This document shows, in pieces, positions 6,007 through 52,520 of a stretch of 64,000 bases of DNA. The notes beneath the pieces are model-generated. The model made no database searches and was not told where the DNA came from. It was given only the letters and a program-made list of their open reading frames with translations. How positions within the stretch are numbered: position 1 is the stretch's first letter; each line of letters starts with the position of its first letter. The DNA is from a virus. The stretch lies in the IMG/VR virus record IMGVR_UViG_3300049043_000070, positions 1 to 64,000 of that record. One strand, 5' to 3'. A program made the translations under genes and the position numbers.

Positions 6007-6065
6007 AGTGCCAGAAAAGCAACTGTCACACTACCCTTGACAACTGCCCAGTAATCGGGTATTAT
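6007..6065 (+). promoter_or_regulatory. Palindrome-promoter cassette with canonical -35
   Basis: AGTGCCAGAA-N4-AACTGTCACA, TTGACA at 6037, TATTAT at 6060 (29 bp after the palindrome). It lies upstream of a small ORF and the tRNA array. Confidence 0.75.
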
Positions 6066-6226
6066 ATATACATACAGAACACGAGAGAACGATGAAAGTT
6101 CCGAACTGGCAGCACCACTCCAAAAAAGAGCAGAAGCGTTCTCTCAAGCCACAAGCATTGAGAGCGGCTGAAAAAGCGTAGGCAGGCATTAAAGGTCAAA
6201 CTATTGGTCAGTATATGACCCCATGT

Positions 6227-6297
6227 GGGGGTATAGCTTAATGGTAGAGCGGCCTGCTTATAACGGGTTGGTCTGGGTTCAATTCCCAGTATCCCTA
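6227..6297 (+). tRNA. tRNA-Ile(UAU)
   Basis: Cloverleaf: acceptor GGGGGTA/TATCCCT, D arm GCTT/GAGC, anticodon stem GCCTG/CGGGT with loop CT-TAT-AA, T arm CTGGG-TTCAATT-CCCAG. Confidence 0.88.
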
Positions 6298-6299
6298 TC

Positions 6300-6373
6300 G
6301 CTCCTTTAGCAATCTGGTGAATGCACCGAACTCATAATTCGGTGAAGGTGGGTTCGATCCCCTCGAAGGAGCA
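6300..6373 (+). tRNA. tRNA with CAU anticodon (Met or Ile2)
   Basis: Acceptor GCTCCTT/AAGGAGC, anticodon stem CCGAA/TTCGG, loop CT-CAT-AA, TTCGATC T loop. Confidence 0.88.
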
Positions 6374-6378
6374 CCTAT

Positions 6379-6451
6379 GCCCGTGTAGTCCAACGGCAGA
6401 GACAGGGGACTTAAAATCCCTCCAGTGTCGGTTCGAATCCGACTACGGGTA
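6379..6451 (+). tRNA. tRNA-Leu(UAA), short variable loop
   Basis: Acceptor GCCCGTG/TACGGGT, anticodon stem GGGGA/TCCCT, loop CT-TAA-AA, T arm GTCGG-TTCGAAT-CCGAC. Confidence 0.85.
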
Positions 6452-6491
6452 TTCTTGTTAAATAGTAACAAGAACTACTAGATCAAATGTA

Positions 6492-6773
6492 ATGGCAGTT
6501 TTCAGGTACACCATCACTCGTAAGCACGTCTTTGTTGACAACGAACCTGTGTTGATGTATTATATTGAAAACATTCCATTTGCGTTTGATATTTTAGAAG
6601 AAGACCAGAAACATGATAAATGGATCTTGTCTGAGGCGGCACTCAACCAAGAATATACTATGGAAGAGATCTTTAGATACTCTGATTACTTGATTGCTGA
6701 AGAGTGCCACCCTGTATTGTTTGAACTAGACTTAGTTAATCCAGAAGTTTTACCCGATGAACCAGTTTCTTGA
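6492..6773 (+). CDS. Hypothetical protein (93 aa)
   Basis: Intact acidic ORF overlapping the cpeT start. Confidence 0.7.
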   Translation: MAVFRYTITRKHVFVDNEPVLMYYIENIPFAFDILEEDQKHDKWILSEAALNQEYTMEEIFRYSDYLIAEECHPVLFELDLVNPEVLPDEPVS

Positions 6774-7275
6774 ATACTTGGAGGGAACCTTTGCCAACAA
6801 AAGGCAAGCACAATCTCATCCTACTCGTTATGCTCATATTCGGGTACAACATCGGAAAATTTCCGATTTTCGCTTCTATGGCGAACAAGCATACAACTAT
6901 CTTCTAAATAACCCATATCGTCAATTTGTCATTGATGTAGAGGTTGAGAAGGGGCAGTTTCGTCTCAAAAATTATGAAATCGCAGATCCGCAAAGATTTG
7001 CTGAGTGTAAAAACCTTGAGCTCATCACAGATGACATCTTGACGTATCGGGAAGGATGTGATATAATTATCACTCAAACTGGTCCAGAAATGTTCCAGGG
7101 TGGCACATCTACTTGTGAGTGTTGGGTTGATTGGCAAGGTGTAAAAACCTATGTTCAAAATGAACTCACACTCACAAAAGATGAATACCACGTTATTGAT
7201 CGTGGACTTCATGCCGAAACCCATGCTAAAGTGTGGGGATCTGATTGGGGAGCGTTCAAGTTTGTTAGAATGTAG
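6757..7275 (+). CDS. cpeT: CpeT/CpcT-family phycobiliprotein chromophore lyase
   Basis: Motifs LEGTFANKRQAQSHPTRYAHIRV, FYGEQAYNY...PYRQ and IDRG...VWGS..GAFKF match the T-type lyase family. Confidence 0.88.
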   Translation: MNQFLEYLEGTFANKRQAQSHPTRYAHIRVQHRKISDFRFYGEQAYNYLLNNPYRQFVIDVEVEKGQFRLKNYEIADPQRFAECKNLELITDDILTYREGCDIIITQTGPEMFQGGTSTCECWVDWQGVKTYVQNELTLTKDEYHVIDRGLHAETHAKVWGSDWGAFKFVRM

Positions 7276-7283
7276 ACCTTCAC

Positions 7284-7354
7284 GCCCTATAAGCATTGTG
7301 GTGATGCAGCAGTTTTGTAAACTGCAGAGAACAGTTCAATTCTGTTATGGGGCT
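7284..7354 (+). tRNA. tRNA-Thr(UGU)
   Basis: Acceptor GCCCTAT/ATGGGGC, anticodon stem GCAGT/ACTGC, loop TT-TGT-AA, T arm AACAG-TTCAATT-CTGTT. Confidence 0.88.
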
Positions 7355-7515
7355 TCGGTACTCGTCATGCAGATAGCATAGAAGGAGGCCGAGGGGAAAG
7401 TCAGCATAAGGCTTCCCGCCAACTTCTACTACGGGTATCTTCCGTAGGGTCGTATGGGGATGATTGGGCAGGGTCTTAAGGACTTTGCCTTCTGGGCGAA
7501 GTCCGATCATCCCCT
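7355..7515 (+). ncRNA. Multi-hairpin structured RNA between tRNAs (manA-RNA-like candidate)
   Basis: At least five helices are visible: TCGGT/GCCGA enclosing ATGC/GCAT, GGGA-AGTC/GGCT-TCCC, CTACGG/CCGTAG, and GGGGATGAT/ATCATCCCC enclosing GGACTTTGCC/GGCGAAGTCC. It is GC-rich with no plausible ORF. Confidence 0.65.
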
Positions 7516-7518
7516 CAT

Positions 7519-7590
7519 CGTGGGGAAGTGTAACGGTTGCACAGAAGTCTCATAAGCTTCAGGTAGATGGTTCAATTCCATCCCCCGCCT
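7519..7590 (+). tRNA. tRNA with CAU anticodon and a 1:72 mismatch (possible initiator-like Met)
   Basis: Acceptor CGTGGGG/CCCCGCC with C1:C72 unpaired, anticodon stem GAAGT/GCTTC, loop CT-CAT-AA, T arm GATGG-TTCAATT-CCATC. Confidence 0.8.
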
Positions 7591-7596
7591 CTATAT

Positions 7597-7671
7597 CCTC
7601 TGTTAGTCTATTGGTAAGGACGGGTGGACAACACACATGGAAACTAGGTTCAATTCCTAGACAGAGGACCA
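7597..7671 (+). ncRNA. tRNA-like element with aberrant anticodon arm and encoded CCA
   Basis: Perfect acceptor CCTCTGT/ACAGAGG plus A-CCA, D arm GTCT/GGAC and T arm CTAGG-TTCAATT-CCTAG. The anticodon arm GGGTGGACAACACACAT pairs poorly and has no U33. Confidence 0.7.
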
Positions 7672-7672
7672 C

Positions 7673-7745
7673 GGGGAATTAGCTCAGTTGGTAGAGCACC
7701 TGCTTTGCACGTAGGTGGTCAGGAGTTCGAGTCTCCTATTCTCCA
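7673..7745 (+). tRNA. tRNA-Ala(UGC)
   Basis: Acceptor GGGGAAT/ATTCTCC with G3:U70, anticodon stem CCTGC/GTAGG, loop TT-TGC-AC. Confidence 0.93.
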
Positions 7746-7764
7746 TGAGTTCTTATTACTCATT

Positions 7765-7920
7765 ATGTCCTTGATTTCAAAAGCAGACAGACAATTAGCA
7801 CTAGAAGCAATTGAGTTTTATCTTTTCAATAAACAACATGACTTTACTGAAGACAAAAGAATACAACTCAACGCTCTTGCCAACTGGATTCGATTGGAAA
7901 GTTTCAAACATGAAAATTAA
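7765..7920 (+). CDS. Hypothetical protein (51 aa)
   Basis: MSLISKADRQLALEAIEFYL..., overlapping the next ORF. Confidence 0.55.
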   Translation: MSLISKADRQLALEAIEFYLFNKQHDFTEDKRIQLNALANWIRLESFKHEN

Positions 7921-8080
7921 TCTGTGGTATTGTGCTATAATGAAGCAGTGGCGCTGGTCTCTTACCGATGATCACCGTCCAATCGTTCGCCAAGAAAGCG
8001 GACAACAACCACATCTACGTGATGCTATGAATGACATAGCAAATACTGTAGAATTTCTTATGGACACTAAACAACTATAA
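7910..8080 (+). CDS. Hypothetical protein (56 aa)
   Basis: MKINLWYCAIMKQWRWSLTDD..., tiling between the tRNAs. Confidence 0.6.
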   Translation: MKINLWYCAIMKQWRWSLTDDHRPIVRQESGQQPHLRDAMNDIANTVEFLMDTKQL

Positions 8081-8086
8081 TTTCAT

Positions 8087-8158
8087 TCCCTTATAGCTCA
8101 ATTGGCAGAGCACGGAGCTGTTAACTCTGGGGTTCCTGGTTCGAGTCCAGGTGGGGAG
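8087..8158 (+). tRNA. tRNA-Asn(GUU)
   Basis: D arm GCTC/GAGC, anticodon stem CGGAG/CTCTG, loop CT-GTT-AA, T arm CCTGG/CCAGG. The 3' acceptor G-run looks one G short (probable homopolymer error). Confidence 0.85.
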
Positions 8159-8287
8159 TTTTGGAGAAAAATATGTTAAATAAAATTCGTGGAGATGTAA
8201 CTTGGAGAGAACAGTTTAATTATATTTTCATTTGCCTTAGAGAAATTTCAAAAATTCTAATATTGCGGAACAACTACAATCCTGGCG

Positions 8288-8295
8288 TATAAATA
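8288..8295 (+). promoter_or_regulatory. T4-type late promoter
   Basis: TATAAATA 41 bp upstream of the giant fibre gene start. Confidence 0.8.
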
Positions 8296-8335
8296 AATCC
8301 AAGGGTAAATTATAATCTACGGGTCAGTATTAATC

Positions 8336-29442: not shown

Positions 29443-29692
29443 ATGAAAGTCCCTACACAATTTGAACTGACGCATCTACAAATGCAGGCGATGCTTCGTG
29501 ACAACAATATCCCAGAGACTGAGGCTGAAGTATATTGGCGAACGTGTCTATCCAGAAAACTTCCAAGCACATCCAGAGTATCATGGTATGATGATGCATT
29601 GGTATCTGATTGCTGGTGAGCATGAGGTGCCAGTCTGTGACATCGGATCTGTTGATTGCGTGGACGATGAGGAAACTGTCACAGGGGGTTGA
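29443..29692 (+). CDS. Hypothetical protein, frameshift near 29520
   Basis: MKVPTQFELTHLQMQAMLRDNNIPETE joins LKYIGERVYP...WYLIAGEHEVPVCDI. Confidence 0.6.
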
Positions 29693-29717
29693 CAGACCCA
29701 GAAATCTCTGTTATATT
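29660..29717 (+). promoter_or_regulatory. Palindrome-promoter cassette with canonical -35
   Basis: GTGGACGATG-N4-AACTGTCACA, TTGACA at 29689, TATATT at 29712. Confidence 0.7.
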
Positions 29718-29745: not shown

Positions 29746-30645
29746 ATGACAACTTATACAAACACAGATGTTTTAAACATCTTAGGATTTAATCCAAAAA
29801 GTGATATCACTAAATGTTTTATCATCCATCTCACACCAGCACAAGCACGACACATTCTTGATTATTATAATCGAGATAATCGTAAAATTTCTAGGTCACA
29901 GGTAAATAAAATTTATCGTAGTATTGAAAACGATAATTGGTTGTTTGATGGACAACCCATGACCTTTAATAAAGAAGGAAACCTGACAGAGTTTCAACAT
30001 CGTCTTTGTGCGATTGCGAAATGTCCCGAAGATCGTACTTTTGAAGTTGTTGTAGTTCTTGGTGTTGATACTGAATGTTTCACCAAAACTGCTACCAACA
30101 AAGCTCGTAAACCTATTGATGAGATCCAGCGTAAACACGATAAAGCACATAAAGATGAAGTTTCTATCCTTGGTGACATTCTAAAGCGTCAACGTCGCTG
30201 GCGTCTTTCTATGCAGAATGCCATTTCCAGTTATGAATACTGGTATGCGAATATTACTCGCTCGTTGAAACTTAGTGGTGATTATGAAAATGTGCTTGAC
30301 AAATTTTCTCTTCAACGTAAAACAGTTCGTGCATATATTTCTTTGTGTGATCGTTACGGTTTGACTGAAGAATGCCTTACATTTCTTGAACTGCTTGATG
30401 ATGAACTTGCAGAAGACAGCACAGAAACTTCTACTCTAACTTCTCAGTTTGTTGAGTTTTGGAATGATAATGCTGTGGATTTAAGTAATGAGAAGCGTAT
30501 GGACTTTTTGTTTGCTATGCTCTGTGTTGCTACTGATCGTATTATTATGCGTGAAGATGGTATGATTGAATTTGGTGTCAAACCCAGACAACTTGAACAC
30601 GAAGAGATGGAAAAGAAAGGAATTTATCGAAAGTTCCTTGCCTGA
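29746..30645 (+). CDS. ParB/Srx-like N-terminal domain protein
   Basis: YNRDNRKISRSQV...NWLFDGQPMTFNKEGNLTEFQHRLCAI resembles the ParB-like GQHRL motif region. Confidence 0.6.
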   Translation: MTTYTNTDVLNILGFNPKSDITKCFIIHLTPAQARHILDYYNRDNRKISRSQVNKIYRSIENDNWLFDGQPMTFNKEGNLTEFQHRLCAIAKCPEDRTFEVVVVLGVDTECFTKTATNKARKPIDEIQRKHDKAHKDEVSILGDILKRQRRWRLSMQNAISSYEYWYANITRSLKLSGDYENVLDKFSLQRKTVRAYISLCDRYGLTEECLTFLELLDDELAEDSTETSTLTSQFVEFWNDNAVDLSNEKRMDFLFAMLCVATDRIIMREDGMIEFGVKPRQLEHEEMEKKGIYRKFLA

Positions 30646-30701
30646 ACCAGTTTCTAAACTGTCACATGGGGTCTTCGGACCCCTTTCTCATGCCCTATAC
30701 T
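30643..30701 (+). promoter_or_regulatory. Palindrome-promoter cassette with embedded UUCG terminator hairpin
   Basis: TGAACCAGTT-N4-AACTGTCACA, hairpin GGGGTC-TTCG-GACCCC-TTT at 30668..30686, TATACT at 30696. Confidence 0.8.
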
Positions 30702-30723: not shown

Positions 30724-31972
30724 ATGACCCTCACTCTTCGCCCCCACCAGCAGCGTATGCTCGATGCTATGCTGACTGCTGTCATGGGTCGCCTGACCTG
30801 CCCTACGGGCGGCGGCAAGTCCCTTGTGATGATCCTTGACTGTCTGCGTCGTCTTCAGGCAGCAGAGACGCCCCAGACCGTCGTAGTGTGCGCTCCTAGG
30901 ATCCTGCTGGCAGTCCAGTTGTATGAAGAGTTCTTTGCTGAACTCAACGGTAAGGTTGATGTTACTGTGCTTCATGTTCACAGCGGTGAGGTTGATTGCC
31001 ACCACACTACCAAAGTGCGTGAGATTGTCATTCATGATAGCATCTGTAAAGCCTGCCAATTCTCACCAACTGATCTTTACCACCTACAACTCTCTGCGTC
31101 GTATCAACGAAGCAGGTATTGATGTTGACCTGATCTATTACGATGAGGCACACAATTCTGTTCGTCGTGACTTCTACAAAGAAGTTGCTGCTGCTTCAGT
31201 CTGACTGCCAAGAACGCATACTATTTCACTGCCACTCCTAAGTATCGTGGTGGTCAGATCAGTATGAACAACACTACTGTGTACGGTAAGGAACTGATCA
31301 ACGTTCCTGCTCCTGAACTGGTTGCTAACGGTAGCATCATTCCTCCTACCATCAAGTCCCACGTCGTTGACATTGAGCGTAACAAGTCTCTGCTCGCCGC
31401 AGAGAATGACCGTGAGGTGTTGATTGATATTGTGTCCCAGCTTGATGAGGACAGCGCACAGAAGATCCTGGTTGCTGCTCCTAACACTCGTGTACTGTGG
31501 CGCCTGCTCTCTAACACTAATGTGATGGCAGAGTTTGGTGCTCGTGGTTACGATGTGCTGCACATCACCAGCAAGCATGGTGCTTACATCAACAAACAGA
31601 AGGTTGGTCGTCAAGAATTCTTTGACACTCTTGATGCCTGGGGTAAAGATCCCAGCCGTAAGTTCATCATGTTCCACTATAGCATCCTGTCTGAAGGCAT
31701 CAACGTTCCTGGTCTGACCCATTGTATCCTGCTGCGTAACCTGCCTGTCATTGAGATGGCGCAAACCATCGGTCGTGTCATCCGACTTGACAAACAGGAC
31801 GCTGCTGATATACAATCTGGCAAGATCCCTGCTGGTCAACTCAATCTGTATCGTAAATCTACTGGTTTTGTGACTGTTCCTGTGTTCAGCAACTACGGTC
31901 AGCAAACTGGAGAAGCGACTGCAGCGTGTGGTTGACAGCATCTTTGTCAAAGGTATTGCCCCTACTGAATGA
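30724..31972 (+). CDS. SF2 (DEAH/ResIII-like) helicase, frameshifted
   Basis: LRPHQ Q-motif, Walker A PTGGGKS, DEAH, motif III TATP, EGINVP, and motif VI QTIGRVIR. Confidence 0.88.
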
Positions 31973-32940
31973 TTGTGCTAAAATGAAACTCAACCCCAAC
32001 AATCCATACGAATTCACTATGACTACTGTAGAAGGACGCCCCAATATTGAACATGATTGGGAAGCAGAATATAGAAATCAGCGTAAAAATCGTCTGACTG
32101 ATGCTGTCCATGACTATCTGGATGATAACGACACATCTATCCTTGAATTCTACAACGATCTGCGAGATATTATCGTAGAGATGAACAACTATCATAAAAA
32201 GTTTGCTGATAAGGCCGAGGGTGCCCTGCTGCTCGTCCACGGCAAACCCAGCGTGGACAAATGTGATGATGACATCCCAGGCGATCCTTCCTACTGATAA
32301 ATATTCTGACGCACTCAAATTACCATGAATGAAGAAGAACTGAAACAAGTTATTGACAATCTGCTACAAATGCAGAGCAATAATGAGTATAATTTTCAAT
32401 TGCTACAAGCACGTATTGATATGCTACAGAAGCAATTAGATGATCTCAATGATGTTAGAGAAGTTTTTAGGCTTCCTAAACCAGAAAATCAAAATCGTGA
32501 AGCATTTGAACAAATCAATTGATGAAATTCAAGCAAGGTCAGTACATAATCTATCGTGGAACTACAGGATGGGTTGATTTTATTGATGATCAATACATCA
32601 CCATTTGTTTTCTTGACAAAGTAGATTTCACCAAGCATAATGGTAGGTATCAAGTATCGTTATTAGTTTTTCGTGAGAATTGGCATGAAGTATGCAGTTG
32701 TGTGGATGAAACAAAAGAAGAACAAGAAAGCAAAACAACAAGCTATTTTCTTCAATCTAGAGGATGCGATTATGTGGGAGCAGCATGTTAGCATGACTGA
32801 GCATGTGAAAACCGAGATCCATCCCGTATTTGAGAACAGTTGAATAAGTGTCACATCGCAAGTCCTATAAGGTCTCAGAAACCTTGACCCCACCTACGCT
32901 TTTCTCTACTATATACTAATAAGGCAATCCAAACAAACCA

Positions 32941-33640: not shown

Positions 33641-34525
33641 ACCTCTAAGTTAAGTATCAAGGTGGCAAATCTCGTGCAAGATTAAGATTATCTCAGCAGT
33701 TGATGCCCGAAAGAATACGATCGTATTGTGGAACCATTTTGTGGTGGCGCATGCCGCTTCTCTTTACTTCGAGAAACCAGCAGTGGTTTGTGAGTAGAAG
33801 ACTGGGAAGTCATTAACCTATACAAATCTGTTGCTGACAATCAAGGATTGCGTCGGAATTATGGTTTCCAAACTCATGAAATCAAACAGTATGATCATGA
33901 TAGGTTGGAGCAGAAAAGTATTATGCACCGTGCAGGGAGAATGATCAGACAAGGGGTTTGATCATGAGCGAGATGTTGAGTGGGCGAGAGCTCTTGCTTA
34001 TGTTGTTGTTCGTCAACTTTGTTTTAGTGGCATGGAGCGATATAATTCTAGTGGTGAATTTAATGTTCCATTTGGTCACTACAAAAATTTCTCCTGTGAC
34101 ATAGACTATGATAATTCTGGTCAGTATTGGAGTCTTTTACCAAATCCAAAATTATTCAGCGGTGATTTTGGAACTAGCACTCAATGAAGCAACTGAAAAT
34201 GACTTTGTACTCATTGATCCTCCTGATCTTGAACGTCTTGGGTATCATCAGTGGTGATGGAGGCGATGATGTCCACTCGTTGAGCCGTGAAAAGTTCTAA
34301 AGAATTCTTCATACAAATGGATGATTGTTCACTCTGACCATGAGTTCTATTCGTGAGCAATACAATGACTTCAACATATATGCGGAGGACTTTATACACT
34401 GTCAGCGATTTGGTTGGAGCAGGAAACCCATTCTAATGCCAAAGTTCAGCACCTCGTACATCACGAACTATCCAGTTGAGGAACTGGCACGCCCCACAGT
34501 GACGGACCACCTTGAGGATGTATGA
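33636..34525 (+). pseudogene. dam: Dam-type DNA adenine methyltransferase, many indels (decay or low-quality consensus)
   Basis: Pieces across frames: MKPL..KYQGGKSR, DRIVEPFCGG, RQLCFSGMERYNSSGEFNVPFGHYK, NDFVLIDPP. These are D12/Dam alpha-class motifs. Confidence 0.75.
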
Positions 34526-34526
34526 T
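34468..34526 (+). promoter_or_regulatory. Palindrome-promoter cassette
   Basis: CTATCCAGTT-N4-AACTGGCACG, 29 bp, TATGAT. Confidence 0.6.
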
Positions 34527-36776: not shown

Positions 36777-36835
36777 AGTGCCAGTTGTGGAACTGTCTAC
36801 AGAGTGCCCTTGCTGAGCTGGATTGACCCTATAAT
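36777..36835 (+). promoter_or_regulatory. Palindrome-promoter cassette
   Basis: AGTGCCAGTT-N4-AACTGTCTAC, 29 bp, TATAAT. Confidence 0.8.
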
Positions 36836-37256: not shown

Positions 37257-37314
37257 TGTGCCAGTTGAACAACTGTCCCCAGAGGCGCTAGAGCTGCTCT
37301 GATTGCCCTATACT
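37257..37314 (+). promoter_or_regulatory. Palindrome-promoter cassette
   Basis: TGTGCCAGTT-N4-AACTGTCCCC, 28 bp, TATACT. Confidence 0.8.
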
Positions 37315-39431
37315 GATTACATCAGCGAAAGACACCACGCCATGACCACCACCTTCGCCCAGTTCGCTTCCGAGCAAACCGCCCGTAACACCATTCAACT
37401 CAACATCGTCAAGTATTGCTTGATGCTCTGTGATGCTCTCAAGCAGGTTGCTCCTGATGGTTACGGTTATGAACTGAATAGCTCTGGTCGTAAGTATCAC
37501 AAAATCTACATGTGTATCAACGGTCAGCGTGATAGCATCCACGCTTTTATTGACAAGACCAACGGTTATGTGTACAAACCTGCTAGCATCAAAGCTCCTG
37601 CCAAAGGTGTACGCTACAACCTGCTCGTTATGAGCGAGCGTGAGCAGATGCTTGAGAAGTGTGACTGGGCAGGCGGTTACCTTTACATGCGGTGATGCTT
37701 GACATTCCGCATCATCCCTGCTAAATTATCTACAGAGTTCGTCTTTACCATGCACTACATCGTTACTAACGGCAACGCATACGCTATTGATCACCCGCAA
37801 GATGCCATTTATGGTGCTCCTGTGCTTGAAGATGGTACTGTTGATTGGGATGGTTCATACGACATTGTGTGGGACTATCTTGGTGAAGAAGAGCGTGAGT
37901 ATGTAGCTCACCTTGCTTATCATCTTCAAGAGATTGCTAAACTGTCAGAAGAGCACACGGAGGTGTTTGTCAAATGAAGTACAATCCACTGGTTGAATAC
38001 ATCCAGACGTTGGTAGAACCATTCCCCAATCGTTATACGATGGGTGAATATAGTATCAGTGTGGCACCACGTCAAGACCTGACATATGAGGAGAATGCCA
38101 AATACTGGCGCGTATTCAGTAGATTTCCTGAATGAATTTGCTGCAGCACTTGCCAGATCGCTTCCTCGTGATGTAGAATTCAAGTCTTACGACCACCTCC
38201 AGAACAAACTTACACTTTTTAAGAAATGAACAATGAAGACTGCCTGCGTATCTCTGAATACCGTGATGATGTGTATGACTGGGCGTGTACCCGCTTTAAG
38301 CAATTGATTGCTGAGGGTGACAATGACCATGCGTTAGCACTTGCTGACGAGTTCTTTGAGTGGTTGGATCCAGAACAGCTAAGATAATGAGGTGACTTTG
38401 TTTTTTAATGAGGATGAACTTAGAGAACACTACGCAGAAATCAGTCAGTGGTCTTAGATCACTGATTATGAATTATATTAAGGCATATAACAACGATAAT
38501 CATTCTCTTGCTGAACAGTTACTTTTTCAAATAAAGACCATCCGAGAAAAAAATGAAAGTAACAATTGAACTTGGAGAAGATCTACAGGAAGAGTATTTG
38601 TCCTGGATTGCCGTCAAAGATAGTTTGAAGATTGACAAGACCATCAACTCCTTTCTATACTACACATATTATTATGGAACATTCAAGAACCCCAAAAATC
38701 CAGACGATGTGGAGGAGCAATGAGCGAAATTCCTAATTTTAAAAATGGTGACGATGAAAACTTCTTTTATGATATTTTTGATGAGAAACTAATCCAGTAC
38801 AAGTTCTTGCTGGATAAAGTTCGTGACACGATGTTTGCTGGAACTGGAAACGGATCTTACGCAAACGTTCCTGGATCATTTTTGGATGTTCTTCATCGGA
38901 TTACCAGAGATCTATTGTATGATACTTGTGACCGATTTGAAGAAGAAAAACCAGAATACAAAAAGAATGTCAGGTTAACATGCGAAATGACCTGATAACC
39001 AAAGATGAACTCAAACAGAATATCAAAGAAGCTTTGAAAGAAGTTTCACCTGAAAATTTATCGCTATTTACTCTCGGTTCATGACAATCTCTGTAATTGA
39101 AAACACTGATGGCACGTTCACAATCGACTGGGACGAAAACGACCCCAAAGAAAAAGTCCTCAACGACTGGACAGAAGAAGACTTCATCGAGTGTATCCGC
39201 TCGCACTGCGAAAAAATTATCGCAAAATCTGACGACCCTGACAACGAGCAAGTCGCCATCGAAGACGCCATCCAAGCGCACATCGACGCCCAAATTAGAA
39301 AAGACGAAGACCCAGAAAACGTCCCTCGTCTATTCTTCTGATCTGGAATTGTTTCCATACGTGGATACATTTCCATATCGTCTAGAAGATCAATCCGAAA
39401 AGAAAACCTGTTATTTCCAATGTGAAGAGCC

Positions 39432-39626
39432 ATGCTAGAAAGTACATCGAACGATACAAACCAGAATACAGATTATACTGTTACACTAGATGAAGATGAG
39501 AATGGTGATCTGTTTATGCCCATTCCAGCAGATTTCCTCACTGAACTTGGTTGGACTGAAGATGATTTGCTGGAATGGATTGTAGAAGGTGACCAAATTA
39601 TCCTCCGTAAGGTAGAAGAAGAGTAA
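39432..39626 (+). CDS. AbrB/MazE/SpoVT-like swapped-hairpin DNA-binding protein
   Basis: YTVTLDEDENGDLFMPIPADFLTELGWTEDDLLEWIVEGDQIILRKV fits the AbrB-fold pattern. Confidence 0.7.
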   Translation: MLESTSNDTNQNTDYTVTLDEDENGDLFMPIPADFLTELGWTEDDLLEWIVEGDQIILRKVEEE

Positions 39627-41485
39627 ATGTCATGGGCATGTTTGATTACTTCAGATCATCATATGATCTTGGACCACAACTCACAAATGTAGAGTGTCAG
39701 ACAAAAGATATTGAAGATGGTATTGGTGGTACGATGACACAATACTGGTTGGATCCTGCTGGTTACCTGTATTACATTGATTACTCACATACACTCGACT
39801 TGAAGATCTATGAACCAGGGGATCCAGAGTATAATGAAGAACGATCATGGTTGAACTTTGAATGGGTGCCAAATGGTACTCGTGGTAGGGTAAATATATT
39901 TCTGCTCACCAAATATGTTGAAGTCTACACATCAACATGGGGTGGTGCGTGGGAAGACTGGCCTCGTGCTAAAATACATTTCAAACATGGCAGGTTGATT
40001 GACTATGAGCTTTTCACTCGTAACACTAAAACACAGGAATGATTGGGGTAATGACTGGTACATCCAGATCATCAATACTGGCACACATTTCCCCAGACCA
40101 CTTAGGAAGAAATCACTACTACAGGTGTCATTATCATGGAACGATGATCACTGTTGGCCATATCTACAGATCAATTCTGGTGGTGGCACATTGTTTGGCA
40201 TGATGTTCTGGGTGTATAAGTTTGGATTTGACATTAGCATTTGGAGCAGAACTTGGACCTGGGAACATCTGAGAGATAAAGCAAATGAAACTGTTTGATT
40301 ACTACCACTACGAAGATTATGGGCACGAATGGTATTTCCAGTTGCTCTCAGTTTATCCACACTTCGCACTGATTAGATTGTGTCATTCAGTGGGATGAAT
40401 ACCCAGCAACAGAAGTATTCCCCATGCTACTGATTAGCTTTGGTAGTAGATCAGTCACAGGGTTCTCATTCCGCTGGAAGTGGTTTGAAATTCGCTGTGA
40501 TTTTCTCACATCAGAACCACGCAACTTCAACAAATACCATCGTAGAGACACATACCTATGACATTCAGCACACCGCTCAAAGGAACTAACAAGAAGAAAA
40601 CTACTCTGAACTGGTGGGAATACTGGATTGGTCATTGCTGGATGACAGGATGGCAGAGCATTAGCATGAACTTCCGCATGTGGGGAGATCTCATGACATC
40701 AAACTACCATCAGCTACGCTCTCATGCGTGAAGATGACCCAGAGGAAGAGTGTAAAGAATGGTTCTGGGTATCGTTGAATGAAGATGATGTTTACCCCAA
40801 AGAGTTTCTAGAGTATCTACTACAAATGTGCGAGGATATAGAGCTGGGCAAAGTAGAAACATATTCCATAGATGAAGTTATGGATAGACTAAAAAATGAA
40901 TTGGACATAGACGATGAAACAACTACCTGATAAGAAAGCACTGGATATTATGTGGACAGTGGCAACGAGTGGCAGTTTAGAAACTGGCACACGTCCCCAT
41001 TACGGTTTCGCTGATCTGTTGTATGATTACCTCACAGACAACCTCAAAAACACCTACGGAGTAGAACTCAACCATGACTTACGAAGTTAAAGTTCAATTC
41101 AAGTTTGATGCTACTTACACTTATAACTATAATTCCAGCTATGATGCTGATGATTTTATCCCAGAAGAGCATTATTTGATTACTGCTCCCGCTGCTGATC
41201 TGAATGCCAAACAGTATTTCAAACTGTTTGAGAAGTTCTTGCTGTGTGTGGGTATGTGCCCCAGTTCTATTCGCTCTGGTGCTATGTCGTTGGTATTCAA
41301 TGACTGGACTGGTGAAGAAGAGCAGCGTAAAGTGTGTAAAGAGTATGAGATCACGATGGATGAAGACCTTGATGAGAAATTCAAGGAATGGAAGATCCGT
41401 GATGAAGAGATTGCCCGTCTTTTGAATAGCAAGAAAGGTCCCATGGGGACTGTATTACAACAAGAAGAAGACCTGATCGGTCTGG

Positions 41486-41544
41486 AGTGACAGTTGGATA
41501 AGTGGCACAGGGGGTGCTGAGATGCCCTCCTGATGCCCTATACT
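41486..41544 (+). promoter_or_regulatory. Palindrome-promoter cassette
   Basis: AGTGACAGTT-N4-AAGTGGCACA, 29 bp, TATACT. Confidence 0.85.
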
Positions 41545-42375: not shown

Positions 42376-42792
42376 ATGAACTACGAAACTAAACCTGATC
42401 ACACTGTTCGTAACGCTGGTATTATTGGCGTATCCTTTATTCTGACGCTGTTTATCATCAACGCTGTTGCTGGTCCGCTGTATAATGTGTGGGCACAATC
42501 GCTACAAGGTAAAGCAGAACTTCAGAAAGCAGAATACACACGTCAAGTTGCTGTGTTGGAAGCACAAGCAAAGAAAGATAGCGCACAACAGTTAGCTGAT
42601 GCTGAGGTTATCCGTGCTCAAGGTGTTGCGAAAGCAAACCAGATCATCGGTAACTCACTGAAAGATAACCGTGAGTATCTTCAGTACCTGTATATCACTG
42701 GACTGGAAGAAGGATCTAACAAAGGTAACGTGACGATCTATGTGCCTACCGAGGGTGGTATGCCTGTCCCGACTTTACAGATGAACAAGTGA
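42376..42792 (+). CDS. Membrane-anchored coiled-coil protein, SPFH/prohibitin C-terminal-like
   Basis: N-terminal TM helix, then AEVIRAQGVAKANQIIGNSL...YLQYLYI...TIYVPTE. Confidence 0.6.
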   Translation: MNYETKPDHTVRNAGIIGVSFILTLFIINAVAGPLYNVWAQSLQGKAELQKAEYTRQVAVLEAQAKKDSAQQLADAEVIRAQGVAKANQIIGNSLKDNREYLQYLYITGLEEGSNKGNVTIYVPTEGGMPVPTLQMNK

Positions 42793-42846
42793 CACTTTGA
42801 GAACTGGCACAGGGCACCTTCACGGGTGCCCTTTTTACTCTATAAT
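42788..42846 (+). promoter_or_regulatory. Palindrome-promoter cassette with terminator hairpin
   Basis: AGTGACACTT-N4-AACTGGCACA, hairpin GGGCACC/GGTGCCC plus TTTTT, TATAAT at 42841. Confidence 0.85.
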
Positions 42847-44074: not shown

Positions 44075-44134
44075 AATGACACTTAAAGAACTGGCACAGG
44101 GCATCTTCACAGGTGCCCTTTGATGCCCTATAAT
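44075..44134 (+). promoter_or_regulatory. Palindrome-promoter cassette with hairpin
   Basis: AATGACACTT-N4-AACTGGCACA, hairpin GGGCATC/GGTGCCC plus TTT, TATAAT at 44129. Confidence 0.85.
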
Positions 44135-46402: not shown

Positions 46403-46735
46403 ATGAAACGCTGGATTGAAGATTCACTCTGGGCAATCAGAAATTGTTTCTCATTTAGGTTTATACATTATGATGATAACATTGATCGGTTAGCATTCTT
46501 TGAAGAAATCAATTGTGGTTGGTATCAAATGTATATCTACCCCTATGATGATCTCTATGTACCAATCATATCAGAAGAAAGAAGATTACGGTTAGATCAG
46601 CATCCCATCACATTCTATGTGACACAAGAAGAATTTTATGATATGATGGATATGATTGAAAATCCACAACCAATCTCATCACAACTCAAACAACTGTTAG
46701 AAAGACAACCACCATGGGATACAAATCATGACTAG
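46403..46735 (+). CDS. Hypothetical protein with C-terminal DUF1778/TacA-antitoxin-like motif
   Basis: ITFYVTQEEFYDMMDMIENPQPISSQLKQLLERQPPWD. Confidence 0.55.
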   Translation: MKRWIEDSLWAIRNCFSFRFIHYDDNIDRLAFFEEINCGWYQMYIYPYDDLYVPIISEERRLRLDQHPITFYVTQEEFYDMMDMIENPQPISSQLKQLLERQPPWDTNHD

Positions 46736-47590: not shown

Positions 47591-47650
47591 TGTGCGGTGG
47601 AGAGAGTTAAGGTGCGGTAGTGACTAGTAAGGTGCGGTGGAGATGTTGGC
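47591..47650. repeat. Three tandem 20-bp imperfect repeats
   Basis: TGTGCGGTGGAGAGAGTTAA / GGTGCGGTAGTGACTAGTAA / GGTGCGGTGGAGATGTTGGC. Confidence 0.85.
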
Positions 47651-47683
47651 TTAGCGTGCTTGCTACCGAAAGTCAACTGAGTG

Positions 47684-47742
47684 TGTGCCAGATCTCAAAG
47701 TGTCACATAGACCCTCAGAGACCCTCCCAGATGCCCTATACT
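47684..47742 (+). promoter_or_regulatory. Palindrome-promoter cassette
   Basis: TGTGCCAGAT-N4-AAGTGTCACA, 29 bp, TATACT. Confidence 0.85.
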
Positions 47743-47944
47743 ACCTAGGTAATCAAAAGACATCCCAGATGCTCACTAAGATCCAGACCATTGAGACTGA
47801 CCTCTCCCCTCAAGAGAAGATTGCCCTAGATGATCTGAAAGTTTGTGAGGCGTTCATGGAAGCACGTAAAGCAGGTGACAAGCAGACTGCCCTTCAGTAT
47901 GCTAAAGTGATGATGCTGAAAGCTTTCAACACTGGTTTCTGAAG

Positions 47945-47983
47945 TTTTCCACAACCTGTGGAAACTGTGGAAACTGTGGAAAA
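47945..47983. repeat. Cluster of four DnaA-box-like nonamers
   Basis: TTTTCCACA, then inverted TGTGGAAAC, TGTGGAAAC, TGTGGAAAA, followed by ~125 bp of A/T tracts. Confidence 0.7.
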
Positions 47984-48109
47984 CTCAAAATCTTAAAAAT
48001 CTCATTTTTTTGATTTTTTGAGTTTTTTAGAAATCTTAGAATTTAACTTTTTTAGTTTTTTAAGATTTTTCATTTTTTTACCAATTAAACTTTAAAGATT
48101 AACACACAC

Positions 48110-48358
48110 ATGACGAAATCATTTCAAAAGCTTAATAGTTCTGCTATTAATAGTGTAGAAGTAGATGAAAATGTAGTTAAAGTAGTGTATAATAGTAACT
48201 TAGATAAAGAATATACATTTAACTGTGAAAATGTAGAAGAATTTGTAGAGAATTTGAGTAAAGAACTTGTAGATATTGAACTAGACAACAATAAAGGATC
48301 TGTTGGTCGTTTTATTAACCAACAGATCAAATCTGGTGTTCTAGTTCAATCTAAATAA
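48110..48358 (+). CDS. KTSC-domain protein
   Basis: NSSAINSVEVD...VKVVYNS...EYTF...GSVGRFINQQI matches the KTSC pattern. Confidence 0.65.
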   Translation: MTKSFQKLNSSAINSVEVDENVVKVVYNSNLDKEYTFNCENVEEFVENLSKELVDIELDNNKGSVGRFINQQIKSGVLVQSK

Positions 48359-48539
48359 TCACACACAATTTGAGTAACTAAGACCAGAAACAATGACCAA
48401 ACAAAACTATCGCTACAACAACAACGATAAGTTTAAACAATTTGATGAAGATTTTGAAGACTATGGATACGATGTAAAGAATATTCGTAGGCAGACTAAA
48501 AAGAAAGTTACCAAATTTAAGCGTGAAGTAGATGAATGG

Positions 48540-48598
48540 TATGACAGTTATTGAAGTGGCACAGTAGTCTCCCAATTGCCCCTGATCTGACCCATACT
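48540..48598 (+). promoter_or_regulatory. Palindrome-promoter cassette
   Basis: TATGACAGTT-N4-AAGTGGCACA, 29 bp, CATACT. Confidence 0.8.
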
Positions 48599-48962
48599 AC
48601 CTAAGTCAACCGCAATTCAACCAATGCGAGTTATCGAACGCAAGATGAACGCTGCCATTCACGCTGGCAAAGATTTCAAACTTGATAACACTCAAGTGGT
48701 TTCGTACACTAACAGCTCTGATGTGTACCTGCATGGTAATCTGATTGCTCGTGTGGGTGAGACTTGGGTGGAGATCTTTGATGGTGGTTGGCAATCTAAC
48801 ACCACCAAATCTCGCCTGAATGCTATTCTGCGTGAGCATGGTTGCCCTGGTGATTGTGTCTTCCAGAAGAACTATACGTGGTTTGTGACTTTCACAGATT
48901 GTAAAAATCAGAAAGTTACTGTTCCTTTCTTTTCTGGTATGCGTTTGAATTAGTGAAATTTC

Positions 48963-49047
48963 AAAATATCGGAAATCTCAATATTTTCATTTTATTGGGA
49001 TTTCCGATATTTTTATAAATTATAAATTATAACTTATAACTTATAAT
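48963..49047. repeat. 20-bp inverted repeat followed by five TTATAAH heptamers
   Basis: AAAATATCGGAAATCTCAAT (48963) and ATTGGGATTTCCGATATTTT (48994) pair with one G-T. TTATAAA x2, TTATAAC x2 and TTATAAT span 49013..49047. Confidence 0.9.
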
Positions 49048-49252
49048 AGGTTATATGTTATAATATACTATTAACATATTAATACTCAAAGAGGTTTATT
49101 ATGACTATTCAAGAGATGTATCAAGAGATGAAAGAACAAACTCTAGAAGATATCTTGAATGGATATAGTGATCTAGATATCTACGATGATAACTATACTA
49201 TCGTAGATATTGATTATACTACTCAAGAATAATCAATATTGTCAAGCTATAT

Positions 49253-49311
49253 TGTGCCAGTTTCTGAACTGTCCACTATCACTTGAAACTGGCACAGTTT
49301 GCTGCCATACT
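49253..49311 (+). promoter_or_regulatory. Palindrome-promoter cassette (extra half-site in spacer)
   Basis: TGTGCCAGTT-N4-AACTGTCCAC, 29 bp containing AACTGGCACA, CATACT. Confidence 0.8.
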
Positions 49312-49526
49312 AACAACATCAACACAAATCCGATGAACCTGAAGATCACTCACATCGTCTTTGATTGTACCTGTGACGATGAAGATTGGACCGATTATGA
49401 TGCTATTGAAACTGCCGACATGTTGGCATCTCGTTATGTAGAAACTGTGTGGGCAGTTGATAACGAAGATGATCTCGTTGAGTTTGTATCATCTAAGTCG
49501 GGATGGTGTATCAATGAGATAGATTA

Positions 49527-49585
49527 TGTGCCAGTAAATGAAGTGGCACAGTATCCTACCAAATGACCCTTAGGGGTGCCATACT
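49527..49585 (+). promoter_or_regulatory. Palindrome-promoter cassette
   Basis: TGTGCCAGTA-N4-AAGTGGCACA, 29 bp, CATACT. Confidence 0.85.
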
Positions 49586-50341
49586 TAACAAGTCAACACA
49601 AAACACATGCCTGACACTTACAATTTCACTGGCGATGGTGTTACTTTCCTTGGTTTGGTTGGTGTTATCTCCACCGCCATTATCATCGTAACTGCCTTCA
49701 CTCGTTACTACAATTCTCCCCTTCGGAAATGAACACTCAACTTCTTTCTGTTCGTGAGCAAATCCAACAGGACATTCTCACTTACGCTTCATTCATTGAT
49801 GATGAGAAAATCTTTTTTAATGATGAAGTTTTAGTTGAACTTTGTGAGATTGTTGTCCGTAACTTTGAGAAACTGAACTGATTATGTACCGTACACTTTC
49901 TGAACTTCGTGATAGCATCAACAGTATGATTGATGCTCAAGGTGAAGATGCTGCCTGTGCTGCATTTGTATTCACTCAACACGATGTCTTTGAGTTCAAC
50001 GAAGACACTAACCAAGACGACTATTTCTCTACACTTTTCACTCAAGATGTGCTCGCTGATGTAGGTGGTTCCGACTACATTTACGAACAGGTTGGTGAGA
50101 TGATTGATGATGCGATTCGTCTCCGTAAAAAACTTCCCCTCTACGCTAACTGAACCATGAGCAACACTTTTGACCGTCAGGCACTCGTTGAAGCATACAT
50201 CGACCGCCTGCTTGATAACATGAGCACCAAAGATTTGCTGCAGATTGTTGGTGACCAGATGGAAGAAAACATCACCAGCTATACTGATGAGGAACTGATT
50301 TCTGAGGTTGAGTCTTACTATCCTGATTTGTTGGAGGATTG

Positions 50342-50527
50342 ATGATGACTGACCCAAACCAACTCAATCTCTACAAAATGTACGATCACCTAAATCAAAC
50401 TTGCAAAAAGTGTGGTGAAGGTTACTATAAAGAAACGAGCATTCATGATGATTGGGATGGTGTTCTTCATTGCTCTAAGTGTGCTCATGAAGTGAAACGA
50501 CACATAAAAGTTTGGGACACAAAGTAA
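50342..50527 (+). CDS. Small zinc-ribbon protein
   Basis: CKKC...HCSKC Cys pairs. Confidence 0.55.
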   Translation: MMTDPNQLNLYKMYDHLNQTCKKCGEGYYKETSIHDDWDGVLHCSKCAHEVKRHIKVWDTK

Positions 50528-50550
50528 CACAAACTGGGCGGCCGCTTCGC

Positions 50551-50609
50551 TGTGCCAGTTGGCAGACTGTCCACCAATCCCCCCAGACTGCCCCTGGGGG
50601 TGCCATACT
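50551..50609 (+). promoter_or_regulatory. Palindrome-promoter cassette
   Basis: TGTGCCAGTT-N4-GACTGTCCAC, 29 bp, CATACT. Confidence 0.8.
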
Positions 50610-50775
50610 AGTCTCATGAAAACAAACAACCCCTACGTCGCTCAGATCCTCGCTAAGGGTCGGGACTATGTGCCCACCCCTGCCCCTAAGGCAGAGTACC
50701 CCCGTACCATCCATGGTCGGGTCTTTGAGACTGAGGCAGACTATCAGGAAGCGATGGCAGACTTCCTAAACGGTC

Positions 50776-50834
50776 TGTGACACTTGCGGGGGTGTCCACT
50801 GATGCCCCCATCCTGCCCAAATCCATTCTATCAT
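50776..50834 (+). promoter_or_regulatory. Palindrome-promoter cassette
   Basis: TGTGACACTT-N4-GGGTGTCCAC, 29 bp, TATCAT. Confidence 0.75.
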
Positions 50835-50855
50835 TCTCTCAGTTCAAACAAACAA

Positions 50856-51284
50856 ATGTCTGTCACCTTGACCGCTAACTATAAAGAAGTGCTCTCTGCC
50901 GATGCTGTAGAGAAGGTGGATGAGTTGCTCGAAGAGAATTATGCTCTCGACGACATGTTGGAGTTCATTGATAACTACAACGAAAACGATTTTGTTGCCT
51001 ATTATGAAGAGTATGTGCGCTGTGGTGAAGCGATCGGTTATGATGCCGTTGATGCTTTGATCGGTGAGATGGGTTGCGTTTCTGACATCGAAGGGTGTGA
51101 TGAACGCTACCGTGGTTGTTACGAATCCACCGCTGATTTTGCTGAAGAGTTTTACAACGACATCAGCGATGTGCCCTCTGCTTTGGTGATTGATTGGGAG
51201 GCGACCTACGATAGTTCGCTGCGCTACGATTTCACCGCTTGTGAAGTGAAGTATCGTGTGGTCTACATCTTCAGCGACTACTGA
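50856..51284 (+). CDS. ArdA-like acidic antirestriction (DNA mimic) protein
   Basis: Very Asp/Glu-rich. The C-terminal YRGCYESTADFAEEF...VPSALVIDWEATY...LRYDF resembles the ArdA C-terminal domain. Confidence 0.7.
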   Translation: MSVTLTANYKEVLSADAVEKVDELLEENYALDDMLEFIDNYNENDFVAYYEEYVRCGEAIGYDAVDALIGEMGCVSDIEGCDERYRGCYESTADFAEEFYNDISDVPSALVIDWEATYDSSLRYDFTACEVKYRVVYIFSDY

Positions 51285-51359
51285 TCTTCACCCCACAAAG
51301 TATACCTAACTCACCATGACGCATTTTACCATGCCCACCCTGCCCGTGATCCGTCAGCG

Positions 51360-51418
51360 AGGGACACTTGCCGAACTGGTCTACCTGTGGGCGATGCAGC
51401 GCCTGGGGTCTGTAGGAT
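51360..51418 (+). promoter_or_regulatory. Palindrome-promoter cassette
   Basis: AGGGACACTT-N4-AACTGGTCTA, 29 bp, TAGGAT. Confidence 0.7.
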
Positions 51419-51613
51419 ACGATCAAACAAACAAACCACATGACCAAGACAGAAGCAACCGCCCTCGCCATCGCCATCGTTCACAGCAACTGCCCCAACG
51501 CTGCCAACGGGCATGTGCGGATGCTGCATCAGACCCCTGAGGGTGCTGAGATGCTGCGCCTGATTGTTCGTGATGATCTCTGCGGTGCTGCTGACATCAT
51601 CGCCAACGCCCTG

Positions 51614-51672
51614 TGGCACAATCTCTGAACTGTCCACCATCCCCCAGGATCTGACCCCAGACCCTGTAGGAT
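51614..51672 (+). promoter_or_regulatory. Palindrome-promoter cassette
   Basis: Right arm AACTGTCCAC, 29 bp, TAGGAT. Confidence 0.7.
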
Positions 51673-51852
51673 ACAAACAACAAAGCAAACACCCCATGTC
51701 GTTTCTCGCCAAATCAATTCTGGTCATGCTGATGGGCAGCGTGACCATCGTGGCAGGTGCCCACGTCATGGATGCCGCCCTTAAAGTTCGGGATAAGATC
51801 GACCATCGCAACGCCCTAACCTGCCAGCAGATCAACGAGATCACCCCTGGAG

Positions 51853-51911
51853 GGTGCCACATGGGCAAGTGACCACCAGCCCCCAGGATCTGACCCCAGA
51901 CCGTCTAGACT
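51853..51911 (+). promoter_or_regulatory. Palindrome-promoter cassette
   Basis: GGTGCCACAT-N4-AAGTGACCAC, 29 bp, TAGACT. Confidence 0.75.
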
Positions 51912-52129
51912 GATCACAACGAAACGAAACGACCCATGACCGTTCGAACCAACGTGCTTCCCCTTGACCTCTGCACCGTCACCCTGACTGAGGCGCAGTG
52001 GTCTACGATCCGAACCGCTTTGCTGTGTCTCGCTTGCGACTGCCGTGTTGCTGGCAAGTCTACCGACGCAGACTACTACCTGAACGCTTACAACAACCTG
52101 AAGGCAGCGATGGGGATGGACGCCTGAGG

Positions 52130-52175
52130 CACTGTCCACCAGCTGCCCCATCGGGCACTGCTGACCCCTTATACT
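52130..52175 (+). promoter_or_regulatory. Half-site promoter cassette
   Basis: CACTGTCCAC, 30 bp, TATACT. Confidence 0.65.
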
Positions 52176-52460
52176 GATCACATCAGCAAACGACACATGA
52201 CCAACACCCTCAGCACCTACAACGGTTGGGCAACCTACGAAACCTGGAATGCCGCCCTGTGGATTGGCAATGATCAATTCCTCTACAACACCGCTAAGGC
52301 ATGTGTAGAGTACTGCGGCGATGATGAGACCCCTTGGGATAAGTTCGTTCGCTGCATGACCGATGGCATCATCGGGCGCCACCTTGTTCAGACCCGTGAC
52401 GGTGTGCGTTGGAATTCCCCGCCATTGATGCAGATGAGATGAACGAGATGATGGCAGAGC

Positions 52461-52520
52461 TGTGACGATCGAAGGGGTGGCACAGTCTGCCCCCGATCTC
52501 CCATCCTGACCCTGTAGACT
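52461..52520 (+). promoter_or_regulatory. Palindrome-promoter cassette
   Basis: TGTGACGATC-N4-GGGTGGCACA, 30 bp, TAGACT. Confidence 0.7.

Follow-up and report, generated by a model that had tools for sequence, protein, structure and literature searches.

A repeated promoter cassette of about 100 bp punctuates the early region of a T4-like cyanophage represented by an IMG/VR virus record (IMGVR_UViG_3300049043_000070; 186,293 bp), of which bases 1-64000, hereafter the window, are the subject of this analysis. The defining feature of the cassette is a palindrome, or dyad, of the form TGTGmCAsTT-N4-AAsTGkCACA that precedes a -10 hexamer at a nearly constant distance. The window contains about 23 copies and the rest of the genome another 4-8, while shuffled sequence yields approximately none. 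The cassette is real, strongly conserved and well-defined, and it is an ordinary component of genomes of the family Kyanoviridae. In the reading favored here, to which a probability of about 0.6 is assigned, it would be an upstream-dyad promoter unit of small early-region genes and of a few conserved genes, at which a dimeric protein helps RNA polymerase to start transcription.

Dyad Copies and Their Register

A first-pass annotation of this DNA had listed some twenty copies of the palindrome, most of them 29 bp ahead of a -10 box. Every listed coordinate holds a copy, although some copies consist mostly of the promoter-proximal arm, and the one copy that had been set apart as out of register, at 32832, is indeed a good dyad with no -10 at the usual distance (Table 1). 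Most copies end 29 nt before the -10 and the others 28 or 30 nt before it, and a motif scan over the full genome and its relatives recovered both the dyad and the 29-nt spacing. With up to three mismatches allowed, the pattern proposed in that annotation gives 11 matches against 0.03 expected, and with a symmetrised weight matrix the 186-kb genome shows 25 sites scoring 14 bits or more, as compared to 0.2 in shuffles. Two copies in the window (40968 and 52681) had been absent from the earlier list, and further copies with a -10 lie beyond the window at 122045, 124758, 159990, and 177674. All copies are oriented with the coding strand, and the ATG that opens the following open reading frame (ORF) stands 21-28 nt after the -10.

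Conservation Across Kyanoviridae

The same cassette is found in Syn9, S-PM2, P-SSM2, P-SSM4, P-HM1, P-HM2, and S-CRM01, in keeping with the earlier suggestion that the motif may not be new. When up to two mismatches are allowed, the pattern has 5-22 matches in each of 12 phages (Syn9, S-PM2, S-WAM2, P-SSM2, P-SSM4, P-HM1, P-HM2, P-RSM4, P-SSM7, S-SSM7, S-CRM01, and P-RSM1), as compared to 0-3 for reversed-pattern controls. In a weight-matrix scan of ten other full Kyanoviridae genomes, all lie above shuffles, with numbers ranging from 25 sites (S-CRM01 and S-PM2) to 4 (S-SM2). The distance from the dyad to the -10 is also maintained. Among 163 sites in 11 genomes, 61 have a distance of 29 nt, 12 of 30 nt, and 7 of 28 nt, with about 1.8 expected per bin. 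The sequence of the spacer differs between phages while its length remains constant, and a stereospecific contact is therefore a better explanation than simple duplication of one unit.

Conservation extends to individual genes. For the genes that follow a cassette in this genome, 68 orthologue starts in other phages were compared. A site scoring 12 bits or more lies 40-150 nt ahead of 33 of them, as compared to 0.9% of random windows. The dyad is kept upstream of the orthologue of the gene at 122127 in nine of ten phages and upstream of the Kyano_Gp96 orthologue in six of seven. The S-PM2 orthologue of the DUF7717 gene retains a dyad (16.9 bits), and the S-WAM2 gene with the same start is also preceded by one; sequence searches with DUF7717 itself (protein atlas, PDB) gave no informative match. 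Given its family-wide occurrence, its fixed spacing and its retention at orthologues, the dyad is judged to be under selection across genera and hosts, the latter comprising Prochlorococcus as well as marine and freshwater Synechococcus.

The Dyad as a Predicted DNA Site

From its sequence characteristics, the dyad is almost certainly a double-stranded DNA site that is read by a dimeric protein. Covariation between the arms was examined at ten proposed arm pairs in an alignment of 37 sites from four phages. Pairing is seen in 67.8% of cells, as compared to 70.6% with shuffled partners, and 492 of 500 shuffles were at least as high. The variable arm positions are self-complementary in few sites (positions 5/20 in 12 of 37 and positions 8/17 in 15 of 37). 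Both half-sites are conserved (10.1 and 12.0 bits). The invariant bases of the dyad, G4, C6, A7 / T18, G19, C21 plus the TT/AA, make two cores that are 11 bp apart and hence on the same face of the helix. Because the arms vary independently, they are best understood as two half-sites, one per subunit, rather than as a selected hairpin. The proposal in the first-pass annotation that the palindrome is the site of a dimeric factor in a fixed -10 register is thus borne out by the independence of the arms, the fixed spacing in 11 phage genomes and the conservation of both half-sites. As for the degenerate positions 5/20 and 8/17, at which the arms differ, it may be that perfect palindromes are avoided or that hetero half-sites are preferred, or the difference may be due to chance.

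The palindrome often overlaps the end of the upstream ORF, and recurring C-terminal tails had been noted for this reason. The overlap is genuine, but the tails are a by-product, as the frame in which the dyad is traversed varies between copies. The TGA within the GTGACA arm serves in five copies as the stop codon of the upstream ORF (frame 3-5), while in the GTGCCA copies the upstream ORF continues through the dyad in another frame. These differing frames indicate that the conserved unit is DNA and not peptide, and together with the use of TGA as the upstream stop in five copies they led to the rejection of a conserved C-terminal peptide.

Cassette Anatomy and the -35 Position

The anatomy of the cassette was derived from 25 cassettes aligned on the -10, with positions that assume a start about 7 nt after it. 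On this scale, the dyad (22-24 bp) extends from about -65 to -42 and is centered at about -53.5. Its core, GTGmCAsTT-N4-AAsTGkCAC, is 22 nt long, with its first base 52 nt ahead of the -10 (about -64) and an unconserved central N4. The 29-nt spacer has a G+C content of 61%, as compared to 38.6% for the genome, and features a C-run near -25 and often TGCC(C) directly before the -10, which is of the TATAcT type and often follows CCC. Downstream of the -10, a recurrent ACATCAAC-like stretch is followed by an A/C-rich leader and the ATG. A putative Pho box of S-PM2d (PMC10976474, Table 2) opens with CCTATACT, equivalent to the CC+TATACT -10 consensus of the cassette type, and some of the Pho boxes predicted in S-PM2 may really be cassette -10 regions.

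The place of the -35 is frequently taken by something else. Hairpins of -8 kcal/mol or stronger are present in 29 of 95 spacers. The spacer opens with a strong hairpin (-10.6 to -19.4 kcal/mol) in seven of the cassettes in this genome, and in four of the seven (30643, 42788, 44075, and 122045) the hairpin is followed by a T-rich run, so that the terminator of the preceding unit appears to occupy the place of the -35. A -35-like hexamer is found in one of the 19 oriented cassettes of this genome. Among the copies first listed, TTGACA had been reported at 6007 and 29660 only. This holds within the window, while the copies at 159990 and 177674, which lie beyond it, also have TTGACA; in all four cases, the dyad is directly upstream of a canonical TTGACA-N17 promoter.

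The idea that an activator site replaces the -35 is therefore only partly borne out: most cassettes have no -35, but dyad and -35 are joined in S-SSM7 and in a tandem array from IMG/VR. In S-SSM7, a TTGnnn hexamer lies 16-18 nt before the -10 in 7 of 16 oriented cassettes. Tandem dyad arrays with a period of 57-58 bp occur in two IMG/VR contigs. The first, IMGVR_UViG_3300008113_001711, contains 9 dyads at positions 90-770, with a repeating unit of dyad-N7-TTGACA-N17-TAGAT and the next dyad immediately after. The second, IMGVR_UViG_3300031784_003461, contains 14 dyads at the same period, as judged by site positions. Such arrays could be very strong promoter stacks, or they could be decoys that soak up the reader. 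Because S-SSM7 and the tandem-array units combine both elements, the dyad is predicted to act from just upstream of the -35 position, which it adjoins, and to work with or without a -35.

Proposed Mechanism

In the proposed mechanism, a symmetric dimer would read the dyad on double-stranded DNA, with one subunit on each arm and both on one face of the helix. Positioned at about -53, just upstream of sigma region 4 and the alpha C-terminal domains, the dimer would contact host RNA polymerase, and this contact would help initiation at promoters where the -10 is good and the -35 is usually missing. The reader might come from the host, be packaged in the virion or be an early product of the phage. 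That the dyad would serve activation rather than repression, that it would control genes of the first wave and who its reader might be are inferred. Activation is favored because the register is strict across genera, the dyad abuts the place of the -35 and it also occurs together with canonical promoters.

Several points weigh against this mechanism. For this phage, where and when transcription starts and whether the dyad raises or lowers it are matters of prediction. Classical activators act from -61.5 (class I) or -41.5 (class II), and a center near -53.5 matches neither; promoters with only a -10 are common in marine picocyanobacteria. The dyad may modulate transcription rather than enable it. 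Copy number is uneven among phages that share one host (WH7803), with 25 in S-PM2 as compared to 7 in S-RIM8. Finally, a reader protein was not found. Pfam and PHROGs comparisons, which covered 73 ORFs of the early region and about 17 small ORFs of the core, revealed no helix-turn-helix or other classical DNA-binding family, and an AbrB-like gene in the early region does not track the dyad.

Candidate Readers and Alternative Readings

It is possible, if tentative, that the reader is a Kyanoviridae-specific dimeric activator and not a host regulator, one that either arrives with the virion or is expressed from the few promoters that combine dyad and -35. Docked at about -53, such an activator would recruit cyanobacterial RNA polymerase where the preceding terminator fills the -35 space. 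If true, an Ogr/Mor-like mechanism would be at work in the first wave of a lytic T4-type phage, and the activator would constitute a new protein family that explains how these phages manage in the absence of Alt, MotA, and AsiA. No Ogr-type activator (CX2CX22CX4C) was evident, as the scanned ORFs gave no Ogr_Delta Pfam match. The Zn-ribbon ORF 50342-50527, which is the only ORF with a CX2C...CX2C arrangement, was rejected as an Ogr-like reader, having no homologue in ten related phages.

Somewhat less probable is a host reader, namely the GntR-type regulator PlmA (PMM1637 in Prochlorococcus MED4). The dyad would then copy CGRE1, an element of yfr2 promoters, and the activator would be borrowed from the host; this is a special case of the proposed mechanism that names the reader. 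CGRE1 is a palindromic upstream promoter element of 21-22 nt in Prochlorococcus and marine Synechococcus, which is the host group, and PMM1637 binds it in pull-down and electrophoretic mobility shift assays (PMC6191309). PlmA is a dimeric regulator of the winged-helix type, which the host already contains when it is infected and which has homologues in all cyanobacteria (PMC6191309). The phage core GTG...CAC is likewise 22 nt long, and a factor present before infection would suit both first-wave genes and breadth of host. The layouts differ, however, as far as the text of the paper goes: CGRE1 begins at -55/-57, has GTTG/GTTA flanks and a conserved GTG(N)CAC-like center (PMC6191309), whereas the phage core begins at about -64 and its center is unconserved.

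Nor did the host genomes add support for PlmA. Five picocyanobacterial genomes reached via psbA (RCC307, MIT S9451, Cyanobium usitatum, and two others; 13.3 Mb) show no excess over the reversed control for the dyad, for the half-site plus -10, or for CGRE1 as worded in the paper. The full dyad has 0-6 matches in these genomes with up to two mismatches, as compared to 4-11 in the control, and none with up to one mismatch. The proximal arm followed after 26-33 nt by TANNNT is never above control in them, while the 186-kb phage has 14-15 such matches on its + strand. The CGRE1 pattern, taken from that wording, matched coding-region noise only in the same five genomes. A host regulon of the phage-dyad design was rejected on this basis. 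When 28 stretches of host DNA surrounding candidate matches were compared to Rfam, Yfr2 was not among the results, in a search that included no Yfr2 positive control.

A variant of the dyad with an N3 center has a few matches in the host genomes, one of them a conserved intergenic site in two Cyanobium genomes. At this locus (301-321), the conserved 21-nt version with its 3-nt center reads GTGACAGTT(C/T)(G/C)GATCTGGCAC. It adjoins a conserved small hairpin and has neither a -10 at 29 nt nor an Rfam match.

The dyad is unlikely to be an operator for a phage-made repressor that closes early promoters at the early-to-middle switch, with the promoters firing unaided on their -10. The general occurrence of -10-only promoters in picocyanobacteria would permit such an arrangement, the design is phage-specific in that it is absent from the five host-type genomes, and a conserved early gene of DNA-binding type is present in the AbrB/SpoVT ORF 39432-39626, the counterpart of Syn9 gp92. 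However, a site at -65 to -42 is clear of the -10 and the start site, and the strict register of 29 +/- 1 nt across genera fits contact between a protein and the polymerase, not simple occlusion. The distribution of the AbrB-like gene is a further obstacle. The ORF, on the + strand, encodes a 64-aa protein with an AbrB/MazE/SpoVT domain (PF04014, E = 3e-8) that is conserved in Syn9, S-PM2 (S-PM2p006 region), and S-WAM2; tblastn locates it in 87 phage records. The gene went undetected in S-CRM01 (25 weight-matrix sites) and P-HM1 (8 pattern matches) and is marginal in P-HM2 and S-SSM7, and strong in S-RIM8, Syn19, and S-SM1, which are phages with few dyad sites. As its distribution does not follow dyad abundance, this ORF is not supported as the reader. 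The neighboring ORF 39109-39438 encodes a 109-aa protein that is very basic and rich in Ser, Thr, and Lys, and the products of both ORFs are of DNA-binding character.

It is highly improbable that the units are chiefly recombination modules similar to the PeSL cassettes of other T4-like phages, with the dyad conserved only as part of a block. The cassettes do punctuate a hyperplastic small-gene region, strong hairpins are present in nearly a third of the spacers (several with T runs), known PeSLs consist of a stem-loop and an early promoter at insertion/deletion borders (PMC4122927), and near-identical cassettes occur in distant phages (window 48540 and S-PM2 20654). Yet spacer sequences diverge while dyad and spacing stay fixed, and the dyad is kept at orthologous core-region genes beyond the hyperplastic regions; a role in recombination would in any case be compatible with promoter function. 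Least probable of all is that the palindrome works by folding into a hairpin, in RNA or DNA (as terminator, processing site or 3'-end stabiliser of the upstream transcript), for which arms of ten nucleotides around a four-nucleotide loop at or just past the upstream stop codon would be suited, but which was rejected because the arms show no covariation or compensatory change, pair less than their shuffled expectation and are mostly mismatched at both variable positions, while real terminator hairpins sit apart, in the spacer.

Comparison With Known Systems

In Syn9, Doron et al. 2016 reportedly found that early genes are controlled by a novel element that is not a sigma-70 -35/-10 pair. Syn9 belongs to the same virus family, and its small-gene region at 44-53 kb carries the present dyad at 29 nt. 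We know of no reader protein that has been named for that early element. The cassette is probably the Syn9 element and thus already described. No description of the dyad was found in the cyanophage literature that was compared, which did not include Doron 2016 and Mann 2005.

The PeSL units of T4-like phages (Arbiol, 2010; Comeau, 2014, PMC4122927) are likewise repeated units of a terminator and an early promoter in hyperplastic regions, a combination also present here, as seen in the 29 of 95 spacers with a hairpin. Cyanophages are not mentioned in the PeSL paper, in which the stem-loop stands before a promoter with a near-consensus -35/-10 and no upstream dyad (PMC4122927). In the present cassette, the hairpin is instead inside the promoter, between dyad and -10, and the -35 is usually missing; as against the near-consensus sigma-70 -35/-10 pair with N17 of PeSLs, one of 19 oriented cassettes of this genome has a -35-like hexamer.

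The late promoters of phage P2 have no -35 and a dyad centered near -55, and Ogr acts on them through the alpha subunit. Like the cassette, the P2 Ogr and P4 delta late promoters feature an upstream partial dyad with TGT...ACA ends, to which a small activator encoded by the phage binds (PMC3931495). In P2, the dyad TGT-N12-ACA spans 18 bp and serves late genes, whereas the dyad here is TGTG-N16-CACA (24 bp) and precedes early-region genes. A factor in place of the -35, at a fixed distance from the -10, is also typical of T4 MotA/AsiA promoters and of CRP/NtcA class II promoters. Unlike the dyad, the MotA box is an asymmetric 9-mer at -30, and cyanophages are without motA and asiA (PMC2984593). 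The CRP and NtcA dyads, TGTGA-N6-TCACA and GTA-N8-TAC (PMC3037559), are centered at -41.5, and both the arm spacing and the -53.5 center seen here differ from them. Taken together, the cassette resembles the P2 Ogr type in mechanism and the PeSL as a composite unit, but fails to show the defining features of either.

Features of the Window and Its Phage

Three observations place the source virus. Short stretches of the genome are 81-92% identical to the Synechococcus myoviruses S-WAM2, S-PM2, and S-RIM32, its nearest records; a psbA piece of 155 residues has 99% protein identity to psbA of Cyanobium usitatum; and DNA of this phage occurs mainly in lake-water metagenomes. For these reasons the virus is classified among the T4-like cyanophages of freshwater, in the family Kyanoviridae. 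About 70 small ORFs occupy the + strand from 29.7 to 53.2 kb, with large family-conserved ORFs on both flanks. The cassettes of the window are compiled in Table 1.

Table 1. Dyads and cassettes of the window, with class of copy, weight-matrix score, -10 box, distance from the end of the dyad to the -10, and associated features.
Positions	Strand	Copy	Bits	-10 box	Distance (nt)	Associated features
6007..6065	+	strong	24.0	TATTAT (6060-6065)		dyad 6007-6030; TTGACA 6037-6042; no ORF of at least 35 aa found starting within 120 nt downstream
29660..29717	+	mostly proximal arm		TATATT		degenerate distal arm; intact proximal arm AACTGTCACA; TTGACA -35; precedes 299-aa ORF 29746-30645, start of small-gene region
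30643..30701	+	strong	24.8	TATACT		terminator-like hairpin GGGGTCTTCGGACCCC (-12.0 kcal) and T-rich run; precedes helicase-like ORF 30724
32832..32855	+	dyad only	16.8			no -10 at 28-30 nt
34468..34526	+	strong	20.0	TATGAT	29	
36777..36835	+	strong		TATAAT	29	
37257..37314	+	strong	29.6	TATACT	28	precedes DUF7717 gene 37342-37695
40968..41027	+	near-perfect	28.7	TATGAT	30	precedes ORF 41074
41486..41544	+	strong		TATACT		spacer hairpin; stop of upstream ORF is TGA within distal arm
42788..42846	+	strong	29.1	TATAAT		spacer terminator GGGCACCTTCACGGGTGCCC + TTTTT (-15.4 kcal)
44075..44134	+	strong		TATAAT	30	spacer hairpin
47684..47742	+	strong		TATACT		
48540..48598	+	strong		CATACT		precedes Kyano_Gp96 gene 48624-48953
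49253..49311	+	strong		CATACT		proximal arm variant GTCCAC
49527..49585	+	strong		CATACT		
50551..50609	+	strong		CATACT	29	in GC-rich island; spacer hairpin
50776..50834	+	weaker	14.0	TATCAT		
51360..51418	+	weaker	17.4	TAGGAT		
51614..51672	+	mostly proximal arm	8.2	TAGGAT		
51853..51911	+	weaker	14.1	TAGACT		
52130..52175	+	half-site, proximal arm only		TATACT	30	arm CACTGTCCAC; read directly
52461..52520	+	mostly proximal arm	8.0	TAGACT	30	degenerate center
52681..52740	+	weak	8.8	TAGACT	30	proximal arm CTGGCACA

Several features of the region and of the wider genome were noted alongside the cassettes. The first gene after the dyad + TTGACA promoter at 29660 (29746-30645) encodes a protein of 299 aa and unknown function (phrog_5931). 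The pieces of a split helicase (30724-31935) come next, then pieces of a DNA methyltransferase, and the splitting of these ORFs suggests frameshift errors in the assembly. At 50000-53200 lies a GC-rich island (about 50% G+C as compared to 38% for the genome) of very small ORFs with one cassette each, in which the variant proximal arm GTCCAC and the variant -10 boxes TAGGAT/TAGACT are found; the 367-aa minus-strand ORF 51816-52919 is probably a composition artefact. Beyond the window, at 171043-171916 of the genome, psbA is broken by two in-frame stops (TGA and TAG) and spread across several ORFs, with the stops probably reflecting assembly errors. A dyad of 19.9 bits stands at 170789, about 200 nt upstream of psbA.

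Meaning for Cyanophage Biology

Much of the picocyanobacterial population of marine and fresh waters is killed by T4-like cyanophages. To our knowledge, they do so without the proteins Alt, Mod, MotA, and AsiA, which organise early and middle transcription in T4. The element examined here has probably been described already, and the question that it poses is the identity of its reader and whether that reader originates from the host or the phage. Across the family, the cassette amounts to an address label of the putative first genes. A 24-mer with a defined register is a precise bait for the protein that starts or stops the infection program, and the cassette can be used to predict early genes in contigs of uncultured cyanophages.

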